Origin: Vibrio alginolyticus NBRC 15630 = ATCC 17749
GTDB taxonomy: Bacteria > Pseudomonadota > Gammaproteobacteria > Enterobacterales > Vibrionaceae
Direction of reading: 5' to 3'
Length of the DNA: 32,000 bases
NCBI RefSeq assembly: GCF_000354175.2
Contig: NC_022349.1
Coordinates: 2,880,001 to 2,912,000 of the forward strand
Made by a program: the position numbers and the translations under genes. This document shows, piece after piece, positions 5,069 through 9,315 of this stretch. The notes under the pieces are model-generated. The model was not told where the DNA came from. It did no database searches and worked only from the letters and a program-made list of their open reading frames with translations. Numbering within the stretch: position 1 is the first letter of the stretch; each line of letters opens with the position of its first letter.

Positions 5069-5107
5069 TTGGCCTTTCCCTGTGTCAAATAGGCGAATAA
5101 ATACAAT

Positions 5108-5145
5108 AAAAGAGTGGCCACAGAGCCGCTCTTTTTATTTTTTGT
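5108..5145 (+). terminator. Rho-independent terminator after vpsR
   Basis: The stem aaagagtggc / gccgctcttt contains one G-U pair and is followed by a ttttatttttt tract. Confidence 0.6.
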
Positions 5146-5359
5146 TTGGTTTGATTTATAAAATCCGCAAATTTATATATTCCTCAGGTGAATATGTTAT
5201 ACATAAAAGTATATGAAACTAAATTGAGGTGTATTGATTTGTTTTTAATCAAAAAGGCAAAAAATGTTTGATATATATTCATCAAAGCTTACAATTTAAC
5301 CGTAACTCAGTGAGTTATACCTTTCATAAACGGATTAATTTTTAGCTAGGAGGCGCAAG

Positions 5360-5470
5360 ATGAAACATTACGTTGTTAACACCACTGCTTGCGCTGATCG
5401 TATGCCTATCGCTCCGATAACCCTTAAATCGGATGATACCAATACCACTGGCTCACAAGATAAAAATTAA
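5360..5470 (+). CDS. Unlisted 36-codon small ORF (MKHYVVNTTACADRMPIAPITLKSDDTNTTGSQDKN), hypothetical
   Basis: ATG at 5360 is preceded by a canonical SD, AGGAGG (5349-5354). The ORF is below the 60-aa cutoff of the ORF track. It is bracketed by a perfect 15-nt inverted repeat (5330-5344 and 5461-5475). I recognise no homology. Confidence 0.4.
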   Translation: MKHYVVNTTACADRMPIAPITLKSDDTNTTGSQDKN

Positions 5471-5595
5471 TCCGTAACCTATCATATTTATTACTAGGCT
5501 GCGGAAAAGTAGCGGCTTAGTATCAACAGAATATTTCTGTTCATTTTACGCACTATTTTTCCCAGTCGAATACATCGATAATCGGAGAAAATATT

Positions 5596-5847
5596 ATGCG
5601 TCACTCTATTTACCTACAATTGGCCACTTTGCTATTGAAAGCAGACCTTAAACGCGAAGAAAAGCAATGGCAGCGCACCATACGTCGAACTGCTCATGAT
5701 ATTCCATGGACGAATGTTCATCTATTGAGAGATATTGGTTTAGATCGCGATGGTCGTTCTACACGTGCCAATGTTCCGGATGCAGTAAAAGTTGAACGTC
5801 GAGTTCGTCACCTTCGTCGAGTCTTAACGTCGCGAATAATGACGTAA
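5596..5847 (+). CDS. DUF1127 domain-containing small protein
   Basis: 83 aa. The segment W..VHLLRDIGLDRDG resembles the DUF1127 (YjiS-like) signature L.DIGL.R. An SD (ggag) lies 9 nt upstream of the ATG. Confidence 0.7.
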   Translation: MRHSIYLQLATLLLKADLKREEKQWQRTIRRTAHDIPWTNVHLLRDIGLDRDGRSTRANVPDAVKVERRVRHLRRVLTSRIMT

Positions 5848-5852
5848 TCGTT

Positions 5853-5906
5853 AGCGTGTTGGGCTGACTGAGTTGCTAACGAGTCATTCAACACGCTTAA
5901 CTTTTT
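5853..5906 (+). terminator. Hairpin plus T-run downstream of the DUF1127 gene
   Basis: agcgtgttg (5853-5861) pairs with caacacgct (5889-5897), with an inner gact/agtc stem. A T5 run follows at 5902-5906. Confidence 0.45.
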
Positions 5907-5930
5907 ATATGAAGTATGACTTCATTGGAT

Positions 5931-5960
5931 AAACAGCTGATCTTGAAGATCAGCTGTTTT
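5931..5960. terminator. Bidirectional terminator between the convergent DUF1127 gene and tas
   Basis: Near-perfect 13-bp palindrome aaacagctgatct-tga-agatcagctgttt, flanked by an A-run on one side and a T-run on the other. Confidence 0.7.
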
Positions 5961-5978
5961 CGTTTGAAGGTGGTACTG

Positions 5979-7167: not shown

Positions 7168-7479
7168 ATGCAGAAGCATCAATTGGACATGTGGCTACAT
7201 GGTCCACATAAAGATACTTATAAAACTCCCAAAGTATTTGTGATTGGGTGTTCTGATGTCTCTGACTATCTTTTAGCTGTGGAGTACAAGCATCAACTTG
7301 AGCCGATTAAAGACGGTGAAGACCCGATACATTTTGGCTCTCTAGACTTAGTAAAAGAAGAACTATTGAGGCTAGGGGTCGATAAAGCGTATTTAAGGCT
7401 GCGCAATGCGTATGACGAATGTGGCACTGAAGAGGCAGCCTCATACTGCGATATTGAGTTATCGCTCGTGACGCACTAA
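7168..7479 (+). CDS. Hypothetical 103-aa acidic cytoplasmic protein
   Basis: A strong SD (gaaggagg) lies 6-7 nt upstream of the ATG and the ORF is clean. I recognise no motif. Confidence 0.6.
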   Translation: MQKHQLDMWLHGPHKDTYKTPKVFVIGCSDVSDYLLAVEYKHQLEPIKDGEDPIHFGSLDLVKEELLRLGVDKAYLRLRNAYDECGTEEAASYCDIELSLVTH

Positions 7480-7494
7480 ATAGCTGATATGGTT

Positions 7495-8175
7495 TTATTC
7501 TGGTTGAGTGTTAATGTAGTGCTTGAGTAAGATCTGTTCAGTAAACTGTGTTCTAAGGTAAAAGCCTCGGGGCAGAGTTTTCATCGGCTTACCATTTGAG
7601 TTGTATGCTTCGGTGAGCGCTTTTGCATTTGCGGCTTTAGGGCGAAGATGCAGCGCTTCTCCGTGTCTGGCGGAAATTTGATCAAATCTTCCCAAGACGA
7701 TCATCTCCATTAACTCTTCCCAGTCATTTCGCAAAATCCGTTCTTCTTCTTCATCTGGTGACCAAATGAGTGGACTGCCCACACGTCTTTCAGCGAGTGG
7801 GATTTCTCGTTCTCCTTCTACGGGTACCCAAAGCACGCGAGATAGCTTGTTTCGAACATGACTTGTTTCCCATGTAAGACCATGAACACCAGTGAGGGGA
7901 GCCACAGAAACAAAGGTTGTTTCTAAAGGTTTGCCAGAATAACTGATCGGAATACTTTTCAACTCGATCCCTAGTTTTGCGAAATCTTGTTGAGGTTTAC
8001 TGCCAGCTGGAGCGCCCAAGTGCCATTCGAGTAATTGACCCACCCAACCTTTATCACGTTTTAAGTTTTCAGGAACAATCATATTCGCCTCGGCGGCCAA
8101 CTCAGCAAAACTGAGTCCTGCCATATCATGCGCTCGTTCCAATAGCTCTGCTTCTGTTTGTGGTTCTGGTTTCAT
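7495..8175 (-). CDS. mutH: DNA mismatch repair endonuclease MutH
   Basis: 226 aa. [21 protein letters not shown]...[13 protein letters not shown]...[10 protein letters not shown]...[14 protein letters not shown] is colinear with E. coli MutH. Confidence 0.95.
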
Positions 8176-8276
8176 AGTTACAAGGTGGTATTACAAAAAA
8201 TATAGTTTATCAAACTCCGACCAAATCTACTGTTTAAGATTTCACCGAGGCGGTGTAAGAACGATCAATTCATAAC

Positions 8277-8285
8277 TTATCCACA
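8277..8285 (+). promoter_or_regulatory. Perfect DnaA box TTATCCACA
   Basis: Exact 9/9 match to the high-affinity DnaA box. Confidence 0.6.
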
Positions 8286-8396
8286 GGTGGAGGAGGTATT
8301 GATAAGATCCTGGCGGGGTCTGTATGAATAAACAGGGGTTAAAATGCATTTTTGGGGTTGATTTTGTTGTAATCATCTAAACGAATAGCAGGTGAG

Positions 8397-8405
8397 TGTG
8401 GATAA
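8397..8405 (-). promoter_or_regulatory. Perfect DnaA box (TGTGGATAA on the + strand)
   Basis: Exact reverse complement of TTATCCACA, 112 bp from the first box and in the opposite orientation. Confidence 0.6.
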
Positions 8406-8505
8406 ATAGCCTGTTGGTGGATCTTTGACCGATCTGAGTTTGGTGAAAAGATCATCAAGAAACTGAAGATCGAATTATCGTTGTTTTTAAAAATAAATAC
8501 TTTTT

Positions 8506-8518
8506 TATCAATGTTTTA
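8506..8518 (+). promoter_or_regulatory. Candidate IHF site TATCAATGTTTTA
   Basis: Fits the WATCAANNNNTTR consensus exactly and is preceded by a long A/T tract (8480-8505). Confidence 0.4.
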
Positions 8519-8588
8519 TGTTTATTTTTTGTTTCTTCATCTGTTTTGCTTTTGATGGGATTGAACTGAATTACTCATTTGAATTGAA

Positions 8589-8609
8589 TTCTTCACAAAG
8601 TTATTCACA
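8589..8609 (+). promoter_or_regulatory. Tandem DnaA-box-like sites TTCTTCACA (8/9) and TTATTCACA (fits TTATNCACA)
   Basis: Two same-orientation boxes at 8589-8597 and 8601-8609, starting 12 bp apart. Confidence 0.4.
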
Positions 8610-8793
8610 GAAAAGGTGAATAAATGTGGGCAATGTCTCACTCTTGTGTTGATAAGGTATGGTTTGATTAAAAGATATCCAAAAATGCTGAAAAGGTAAT
8701 AAATCTTGCTCATATCACATCAGTAAGTTTGCTAGTAATGGGGATATGTGGAAAAATCACGGTAATAAAAAATTTATTCATAGAGGTTAGCCA

Positions 8794-9315
8794 GTGATAG
8801 ATGGCGATGGTTACCGACTTAATGTTGGTATTGTGATATGTAATAACCATGGTCAGGTCTTCTGGGCTAAACGATACGGGCAACACTCATGGCAATTTCC
8901 ACAAGGTGGGATTGACGAAGGTGAAACCCCTGAACAAGCCATGTTCAGGGAGTTATACGAAGAAGTCGGTTTAACGAAAAAAGACGTTAAGATCATTGCA
9001 ACAAGTCGTCATTGGTTAAGATATAAGCTACCAAAGCGATTGGTGCGTTGGGACTCCAAGCCTGTTTGTATCGGCCAAAAACAGAAATGGTTTCTGCTGA
9101 GATTAGAATGCGATGAGTCTCGCATTAATATGCAACGCGGAAAATCCCCTGAATTTGATGGTTGGCGCTGGGTAAGTTACTGGTATCCAGTTAGGCAAGT
9201 TGTTTCTTTCAAGCGAGATGTTTATCGACGAGCGATGAAAGAATTTGCATCCTTAGCCATGCCTTTTCGAGAGAGAAAAGCGAAAGGGAAAAGAAAAAAG
9301 CAACGTAGAGGATAA
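8794..9315 (+). CDS. rppH: RNA pyrophosphohydrolase RppH (NudH), GTG start
   Basis: [17 protein letters not shown]...[29 protein letters not shown] contains the Nudix box and is colinear with E. coli RppH. An SD (agagg) lies upstream of the GTG. Confidence 0.95.

Follow-up and report, generated by a model that had tools for sequence, protein, structure and literature searches.

A probable DARS2 ortholog, with a probable LexA operator inside it, between mutH and rppH of Vibrio alginolyticus

What are 618 bp of non-coding DNA doing between two genes that point away from each other, and why should they hold the only perfect DnaA boxes of the region? The gap in question (8176-8793) separates mutH from rppH in a 32,000-nucleotide stretch of Vibrio alginolyticus NBRC 15630 = ATCC 17749 (contig NC_022349.1, positions 2,880,001 to 2,912,000), all of which we analyzed and which we call the window. 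In Escherichia coli, the same intergenic region carries DnaA-reactivating sequence 2 (DARS2), on which the cell chiefly relies to restore active ATP-DnaA ahead of each replication round. Is the Vibrio gap the same device? We argue that it very probably is: an ortholog of E. coli DARS2, presumably on chromosome 1, that is also the regulatory DNA of both flanking genes. An initial annotation, made from the letters alone, had proposed a chromosome-1 DARS2 equivalent here, and synteny, alignment with E. coli, element order, spacing, and conservation now support that proposal. In other words, we call the gap a DARS2 equivalent because of direct homology and not because of motif counting alone.

A triple-box core and its distant partners

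The location is the expected one. In E. coli, DARS2 occupies the mutH-rppH (ygdP) intergenic region, with mutH divergent from rppH-ptsP-...-lgt-thyA, and the window has the same arrangement, with ptsP, a TauE-family gene, lgt, and thyA downstream of rppH. The elements that we recognize in the gap, and the two genes that bound it, are given below; identities are to the window, in an alignment of 26 Vibrionaceae loci.

8589-8597, + strand: DnaA box III of the DARS2 core, TTCTTCACA, identical to E. coli box III
8601-8609, + strand: DnaA box II of the core, TTATTCACA, 3 bp (aag) after box III
8615-8623, - strand: DnaA box I of the core, GGTGAATAA in + strand letters, identical to E. coli, after a 5-bp GAAAA spacer that follows box II
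8624-8655, no strand assigned: conserved block after the core, ending in TGTTGATAA, aligned with E. coli; identity 0.76 across Vibrionaceae
8397-8405, - strand: homolog of DnaA box V, a perfect consensus box (TGTGGATAA on the + strand), by alignment with E. coli; identity 0.94 across Vibrionaceae
8277-8285, + strand: homolog of DnaA box VI, perfect consensus TTATCCACA, by alignment with E. coli; identity 0.98 in the 26 Vibrionaceae
8407-8427, no strand assigned: homolog of the essential 21-mer of E. coli DARS2, which holds Fis-binding sites 2 and 3 (FBS2-3), TAGCCTGTTGGTGGATCTTTG; 14/21 bases match E. coli; identity 0.87
8494-8518, no strand assigned: IHF-site region, made up of TAAATACTTTTTT at 8494-8506, which resembles E. 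coli IHF-binding site 1 (IBS1) with 2 mismatches, and the exact site TATCAATGTTTTA at 8506-8518
7495-8175, - strand: mutH, DNA mismatch repair endonuclease (NCBIfam equivalog NF003458, 375 bits), the left flank
8794-9315, + strand: rppH, RNA pyrophosphohydrolase (NCBIfam NF001934, 339 bits), the right flank

The center of the argument is the core. From 8589 to 8623 the window reads TTCTTCACA-aag-TTATTCACA-gaaaa-GGTGAATAA, that is, box III, then box II in tandem after 3 bp, then an inverted box I after 5 bp more, with both spacers as in E. coli. Laid against the E. coli core pattern TTCTTCACAAnnnTATnCACAGAAAAGGTGAATAAA, positions 8589-8624 show 0 mismatches at 32 specified positions, and the 4 differences that separate the two cores all fall at spacer or N positions. 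The head-to-head pair of boxes II and I is unique in the window, where 0.01 would be expected, and chromatin immunoprecipitation sequencing (ChIP-seq) in E. coli finds DnaA bound to a “double DnaA box” arrangement, as in box III/II (PMC11317965). The core lies ~170 bp from the start of rppH and >400 bp from mutH. The conserved block that follows it reads ATGTGGGCAATGTCTCAC...TGTTGATAA, and E. coli has TGTTTATAA at the matching place; the terminal TGTTnATAA is common to both, and a weak hairpin (8626-8641) lies inside the block. The initial annotation had found the matches at 8601-8609 and 8589-8597, which are indeed there, but it filed them as further boxes when they are core boxes II and III, and it left out core box I, at 8615-8623, with which 8601-8609 is paired. 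It had also taken the two perfect boxes for the heart of the locus; the catalytic core is instead, by homology, the triple box.

What, then, of the two perfect boxes? They are the only copies of TTATCCACA in the window (8277-8285 on the + strand and 8397-8405 on the - strand, with 0.30 expected per window); at least two copies turned up anywhere in the window in 5 of 100 shuffles, and two inside 618 bp would be far rarer. The gap as a whole has 9 sites with at most one mismatch to TTATNCACA, or 14.6 per kb vs 1.2 per kb for the whole window, and its weaker boxes include, besides the core's TTATTCACA and TTCTTCACA, TGTTGATAA at 8647-8655 and TGTGGAAAA at 8747-8755. All of the motifs that the initial annotation had listed prove to be present, among them the two perfect boxes in opposite orientation, these last two weaker ones, six GATC sites with four of them within 52 bp, and an exact IHF consensus; the 618-bp gap, too, is as it had described.

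Next to box V stands the Fis block, and the two together read TGTGGATAAATA-n5-TTGGTgGATCTTT in the window and TGTGGATAAATA-n5-TTGGTtGATCTTT in E. coli; over the 21-mer itself, TAGCCTGTTGGTGGATCTTTG and its E. coli counterpart TACGGCATTGGTTGATCTTTC share 14/21 bases. Box V is accompanied, at the level of sequence, by low-affinity boxes that lie over the Fis sites, and AGATCCACC, on the minus strand over the Fis block, has 6/9 consensus bases (by eye) vs 5/9 in E. coli. The E. coli box V nucleates an ATP-DnaA oligomer that evicts Fis, a negative feedback, and E. coli DARS2 keeps its basic activity without its right half (boxes IV-VI).

Between the Fis block and the core comes IHF. At 8506-8518, TATCAATGTTTTA matches WATCAANNNNTTR exactly, although the window holds 3 such matches vs 1.96 expected, a number that is not significant alone. 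The start of the exact site is 83 bp from the core, which is where E. coli has its IBS1-2 pair (IBS1 at 87 bp and IBS2 at 71 bp). By sequence, the window has an IHF site in the interval from Fis sites to core, at a defined distance from the core, with a position and orientation that vary among Vibrionaceae.

How might these parts work together? The mechanism of E. coli DARS2 has been dissected biochemically (PMC4245941, PMC8682772, PMC11724364), and DnaA ChIP-seq gives three strong peaks at that locus: one over the core, one over the region of box V, and one over box VI (PMC11317965). If the Vibrio locus works in the same way, then ADP-DnaA would bind core boxes I, II, and III (8589-8623), where the protomers on boxes I and II would meet head-to-head. 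IHF, around 8494-8518, would bend the ~165-bp arm and so bring Fis, at 8407-8427, to the core complex; ADP would be released, and apo-DnaA would take up ATP and become active for initiation at ori1. When ATP-DnaA is high, an oligomer would spread from box V (8397-8405) over the Fis site and turn the locus off. These protein–DNA contacts, and the nucleotide exchange itself, we infer for Vibrio by analogy with E. coli.

One arrangement in two orders

The initial annotation had suggested two comparisons by which its proposal might be judged, one with E. coli DARS2 and one across Vibrionaceae. When the E. coli mutH-rppH region (L001) is aligned with the gap, three islands of identity appear, in the same order and at almost the same spacing, within DNA that is otherwise unalignable: TTATCCACAG at 8277, TGTGGATAAATA-n5-TTGGTnGATCTTT at 8397-8426, and TTCTTCACAAnnnTATnCACAGAAAAGGTGAATAAA at 8589-8624. 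We located the E. coli elements on L001 from the primer and oligonucleotide sequences that Kasho et al. 2014 give in their supplement (PMC4245941). On that map, the 455 bp of DARS2 run from 1913 to 2367 and the minimal element from 2136 to 2367; core boxes III, II, and I occupy 2309-2343; box V is at 2124-2132 (set by oligonucleotide F45 and primers Ksh-32/33), box VI at 2005-2013 (primers Ksh-34/35), and box IV at 2270-2278; the essential 21-mer with FBS2-3 is TACGGCATTGGTTGATCTTTC (primers MutH-11/MutH-17); and IBS1-2 is TAATGCATTGACT-gat-AATGAATATTTTA at 2222-2250 (translocation primers). Since the three islands match these published elements, they are box VI, box V with FBS2-3, and the DARS2 core.

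The wider comparison rests on a scan with RppH, one genome per species, which gave 80 loci from Vibrio, Photobacterium, Enterovibrio, Aliivibrio, many Enterobacterales, Pseudoalteromonas, and Rheinheimera, among others; the closest is that of V. jasicida (RppH 99% and MutH 92% identical), which places the window in the Harveyi clade of Vibrio. Of the 80 loci, 70 have mutH upstream of rppH and divergent from it, and the elements were compared in 26 Vibrionaceae and ~45 Enterobacterales loci. The core, the box V/FBS block, and box VI recur in every such Vibrionaceae locus except that of one metagenome-assembled genome (L030), as they do in essentially all Enterobacterales in which mutH is divergent from rppH, and the block TTGGTnGATCTTT is kept in nearly all loci.

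The boxes are conserved, then, and their spacing is tight. From the start of the core to rppH there are 203-206 bp in Vibrionaceae; nearly all Enterobacterales have 187-199 bp, and E. coli has 192. From the FBS block to the core, the distance is 161-165 bp in Vibrionaceae and 153-157 bp in Enterobacterales, and from box VI to box V it is 118-120 bp in both (~70 loci). Within Vibrionaceae (n=26), the identity of 0.98 for box VI, 0.94 for box V, 0.91 for the core, and 0.87 for the FBS block stands against 0.43 for the rest of the gap. These elements are homologous to those of E. coli, and they are under purifying selection.

The exceptions have their own interest. The L030 locus has a mutH-rppH gap of 257 bp and none of the DARS2 elements. 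Loci of Providencia, Xenorhabdus, Photorhabdus, and Arsenophonus lack both a mutH within 2 kb of rppH and a core at that place, and the symbionts Sodalis and Symbiopectobacterium have a decaying core (5-6 mismatches) together with a decaying Fis block (L033, L036, L047, L072; L040, L065, L075). Between mutH and rppH of Pseudoalteromonas and Rheinheimera (L044, L046, L055, L059-L061, L064, L074; gap 376-577 bp) there is a core of the III-II-I type only (e.g., TATAAACAtaaTTATCCACAgaataTGTGGAAAA), the box V/Fis block being absent from the loci examined; to judge from the sequences, this would seem to be a simpler and possibly ancestral form. In all Enterobacterales rows and in some loci of Photobacterium and Parasalinivibrio, GAAAnn-TGGGATAA / TTGGATAA comes after box VI (E. 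coli: L001 2005-2028; also L016, L017, and L025). This sequence repeats, in degenerate form, the box II, spacer, and inverted box I of the core; Vibrio proper, the window included, has lost it.

What else the gap does, or might do instead

A divergent intergenic region is also a place for promoters and operators, and this one has three features of its own to add to those of DARS2.

8320-8335, no strand assigned: LexA (SOS) box CTGTATGAATAAACAG, probably the operator of mutH, lying between boxes VI and V; no other CTGT-N8-ACAG occurs in the window
8420-8471, no strand assigned: four clustered GATC (Dam) sites, which start at 8420, 8431, 8450, and 8468; that at 8420 falls inside the FBS2-3 homolog
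8729-8757, + strand: putative rppH promoter, with a -35 TTGCTA at 8729-8734, a 17-bp spacer, and an extended -10 TGgAAAAAT at 8749-8757

The LexA box, which the initial annotation had overlooked, is a palindrome 145 bp upstream of the mutH start. Scored with a position weight matrix that we derived from the LexA sites of V. cholerae in Sanchez-Alberola et al. 2012, it is the top site of the window (13.9 bits vs 9.9 for the next) and comparable to the weakest V. cholerae training sites (14.1-14.5). In most loci that carry DARS2, the best LexA match of the whole intergenic region falls at the position of the window's box, which is the same in Vibrionaceae and Enterobacterales (E. coli: L001 2052-2067; same offset in L002-L081). 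Experiment bears on two of its relatives. LexA bound a V. parahaemolyticus mutH probe in an electrophoretic mobility shift assay, at a near-identical site, GGGCTGGATGAATAAACAGGGG, that is the positional homolog of the window's GGTCTGTATGAATAAACAGGGG (Sanchez-Alberola et al. 2012, PMC3323433); the Salmonella mutH box, 228 bp upstream, agrees with the position in Enterobacterales, and the gene there is induced 3.6-fold by nalidixic acid (Merida-Floriano et al. 2021, PMC8072944). Both papers treat the site as an operator of mutH only, its location inside DARS2 between boxes V and VI going unremarked, and for V. cholerae mutH (VC0668) no LexA motif is listed (Sanchez-Alberola 2012), whereas the window has the full CTGT-N8-ACAG. 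In the available portions of the literature that covers both DARS2 and LexA, we found no link between them. We saw no convincing mutH promoter around the LexA box on either strand. Even so, the SOS operator of mutH probably sits inside DARS2, between boxes VI and V.

Six GATC sites start in the gap (8263, 8306, 8420, 8431, 8450, and 8468), and the last four, within 52 bp, form the sole such group in the window; random placement puts one in the gap in 7 of 5000 trials. A GATC inside the Fis block is nearly universal among the compared loci. Counted from it, a site at +11 is common in Vibrionaceae, and sites at +30 and +48 are found only in the window and its closest relatives, L002 and L003 (L004 has +30 and +51); many Enterobacterales, E. 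coli not among them, have extra sites at +18/19 and +34/35, and E. coli K-12 has a single GATC there, inside the Fis site. Over the 60 bp after the Fis-block GATC, the density is 26/kb in Vibrionaceae and 22/kb in Enterobacterales against 3-6/kb elsewhere in the gap, an enrichment of 4-6-fold that is not corrected for shared ancestry and that may point to SeqA/Dam control.

At the other end of the gap, we read 8729-8757 as most probably the promoter of rppH. The segment coincides with a block of conservation at 8722-8760, the E. coli sequence aligned with it includes TGaAACAAT, and a GAGG ribosome-binding site and a GTG start follow on its 3' side. Our consensus promoter scan did not report it; in the gap, the promoter and terminator scans returned one weak promoter-like match (8177-8206) and the one weak hairpin already mentioned (8626-8641), no more than in shuffles. 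The initial annotation had read TGTGGAAAA at 8747-8755 as a DnaA box, and the sequence is present, but it is more probably part of the extended -10.

Could all of this mean that the gap is only a divergent promoter region for mutH and rppH, regulated by DnaA, LexA, and Dam, or else a site that titrates DnaA, with no nucleotide exchange in Vibrio? We consider this unlikely, although it is the alternative that survives best. A mutH operator between boxes VI and V, of a kind bound experimentally in V. parahaemolyticus, is what it would lead one to expect; so is the overlap of the likely rppH promoter with one 8/9 DnaA box, and so too the dispensability of boxes IV-VI in E. coli and the weak Fis consensus here. 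There is even a precedent in uvrB, the neighbor of DARS1, which is under both DnaA and LexA according to a paper that cites the finding; a LexA box in DARS2 parallels that arrangement. As an account of the left part of the gap (box VI and the LexA box), the promoter reading may serve, but it leaves the core and the fixed long-range spacing unexplained. The III-II-I core is most conserved, with exact spacers, and stands well away from both gene starts, and a strict distance from FBS to core, kept although the ~165 bp of intervening DNA are otherwise unconserved, is more what one would expect of a looped nucleoprotein machine than of a promoter. The two readings are in any case compatible, and the gap most probably does both, with box VI (8277-8285) and the LexA box (8320-8335) most probably belonging to mutH regulation. 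The initial annotation had itself offered a DnaA- and SeqA/Dam-controlled divergent promoter region as its alternative, and the regulated divergent promoter is the part of it that holds, by virtue of the mutH LexA operator.

Some observations do weigh against DnaA reactivation here, and they deserve to be set out together. Box VI, the LexA box, and the conservation at 8722-8760 are better explained by gene regulation. The FBS2-3 homolog fits the published Fis consensus, GnnYAnnnnnTRnnC, with 2 mismatches (by eye) vs 1 in E. coli, and a scan for that consensus near box V gave no site at ≤1 mismatch, so that the case for Fis binding is one of homology alone. The IHF site is not fixed within Vibrionaceae, where aligned identity is only 0.57. 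The exact site of the window, like that of its closest relative, L002, is at -83/-84 and in one orientation; 12 of 25 other Vibrionaceae loci carry theirs (≤1 mismatch) at -96 to -98 and turned the other way, a position comparable to the -87 of E. coli IBS1, and in several loci nothing matches at ≤1 mismatch. The spacer from FBS to core is ~7 bp longer here than in E. coli (162 vs 155 bp), and in E. coli, shifts of 5 bp in the IHF or Fis sites reduced activity. Finally, we found in the literature no functional test of DARS2 for any Vibrio, in agreement with the initial annotation, which knew of none; a V. cholerae sequence homolog, though, had already been published.

Might the conserved blocks instead belong to a gene for a small protein or a small RNA? 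This is very improbable, tempting as it is that E. coli has a 48-codon gene, ygdT, annotated exactly between boxes VI and V and that the gap has minus-strand open reading frames (ORFs) of 44 and 58 codons. In tblastn against 81 loci, these ORFs and ygdT are unconserved and stop-interrupted; those of the window are interrupted or decay quickly even in close relatives, and the conservation comes in short blocks amid unalignable DNA, which is not what codons produce. The small-RNA version was dropped, for Rfam gave no match in the whole window at the gathering threshold or in 8100-8900 at an E-value up to 1; a tRNA scan found nothing. As for ygdT (L001 2002-2148), its start is at box VI (ATG-TTATCCACAG) and its end lies in the Fis block; the frame has stops in most other Enterobacteriaceae, and the ATG is unconserved. 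It has the look of an annotation placed on top of DARS2, not of a conserved gene.

Chance accumulation of motifs in AT-rich spacer DNA is a next to negligible prospect, for although single motifs are weak (IHF 3 vs 1.96 expected; relaxed DnaA boxes 8 vs 4.8), the head-to-head pair, the fall of both perfect boxes of the window into this gap, and the same elements in the same order and spacing in ~70 loci of two orders refute it, and it and the small gene can be regarded as effectively excluded.

If the gap is, as we believe, DARS2 and regulatory DNA at once, then a bolder thought suggests itself, and we hold it to be rather doubtful: outside E. coli K-12, DARS2 may have two extra inputs, LexA and Dam/SeqA. 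Because a LexA operator is fixed between boxes VI and V in two orders, the SOS state could alter the assembly of DnaA or Fis on DARS2, and conversely, DnaA could gate the induction of mutH; because a cluster of Dam sites abuts the essential Fis site, SeqA could sequester that site for a period after the fork has passed. If so, a two-chromosome Vibrio would tie the regeneration of ATP-DnaA to the progress of replication and to DNA damage. The fixed operator and the recurrent GATC cluster may be new; they are leads, not results.

A few features of the surroundings can be recorded here. A roughly mid-replichore position relative to oriC is characteristic of DARS2; the 32-kb window contains no origin, and in 2 complete Vibrionaceae chromosome-1 records, the locus lies 557 kb and 619 kb from the record ends. 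The initial annotation had called the window otherwise tightly packed, and this is roughly true, but there is a second large gap of ~910 bp (5069-5978), between a gene for a sigma-54 activator and a tas-like aldo-keto reductase, with no content beyond an 83-codon ORF that has no family match. Beside mutH is encoded a DUF6482 protein of 103 amino acids (7168-7479). Farther off, prfB (826-1924) has the classical programmed +1 frameshift site AGGGGGTATCTTTGAC at 889-904: its first frame stops after 25 codons at an in-frame TGA, and the +1 frame encodes the remainder of RF2.

The locus among known systems

How much of this is new? A DARS2 locus in Vibrio is already known by sequence from V. cholerae, so that ours is a rediscovery in kind and in genus. 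DARS-like sequences at the same V. cholerae locus go back to Fujimitsu et al. 2009, as cited in a 2018 review (PMC6090056); the core, IBS1-2, and FBS2-3 of V. cholerae N16961 are compared in Fig. S10A of Kasho et al. 2014 (PMC4245941), and the box V cluster is compared in Fig. 8 of Miyoshi et al. 2021. What we can add is a set of exact coordinates for the elements of the locus and the observation that the device—core, IHF site, Fis block, box V, and box VI—is kept across Vibrionaceae in a near-fixed geometry, which supports the view that initiation on chromosome 1 in Vibrio uses the same DnaA cycle.

It remains to place the gap beside its nearest relatives in function. The V. cholerae crtS site is, like DARS2, a non-coding site on chromosome 1 that acts in trans on an initiator, but that initiator is RctB, the chromosome is chromosome 2, and crtS has no DARS core; nothing resembling it was seen in the gap, where no search was aimed at it, and architecture and location led us to reject it as an identity for the gap. 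E. coli datA resembles the gap in that it is non-coding and combines clustered DnaA boxes with an IHF site, and it alters the nucleotide state of DnaA. It promotes ATP hydrolysis, however, with another box arrangement, no requirement for Fis, and another locus, whereas the gap has the DARS core; datA was rejected on the same two grounds. E. coli DARS1, between bioD and uvrB, comes closer, for it shares the three-box core with the window and adjoins a LexA-regulated repair gene, uvrB. It has no IHF/Fis regulatory part and lies at another locus, whereas the window has a regulatory part of the DARS2 type and the synteny to go with it; with mutH and rppH as flanks, not uvrB, and the regulatory region present, DARS1 was also rejected.

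Closer still is the DARS2-homologous sequence of V. cholerae N16961, which, so far as those published figures and the review extend, has the same genus, the same locus, and the same elements (core, IBS1-2, FBS2-3, and box V cluster) in a different species. With E. coli DARS2 itself, the differences are ones of detail. The window has one exact and one degenerate IHF site where E. coli has the IBS1-2 pair; it has no counterpart of box IV or of an exact-consensus FBS1, a weaker match to the Fis consensus, an FBS–core spacer of 162 bp instead of 155, four GATC sites beside the Fis block instead of one, and no ygdT ORF. What the two have in common is the plan: the flanking genes and their orientation, a box III followed after 3 bp by box II and after 5 bp more by an inverted box I, perfect boxes V and VI 119-120 bp apart, an FBS2-3 block, TTGGTnGATCTTT, that abuts box V, and an IHF consensus between the Fis block and the core.

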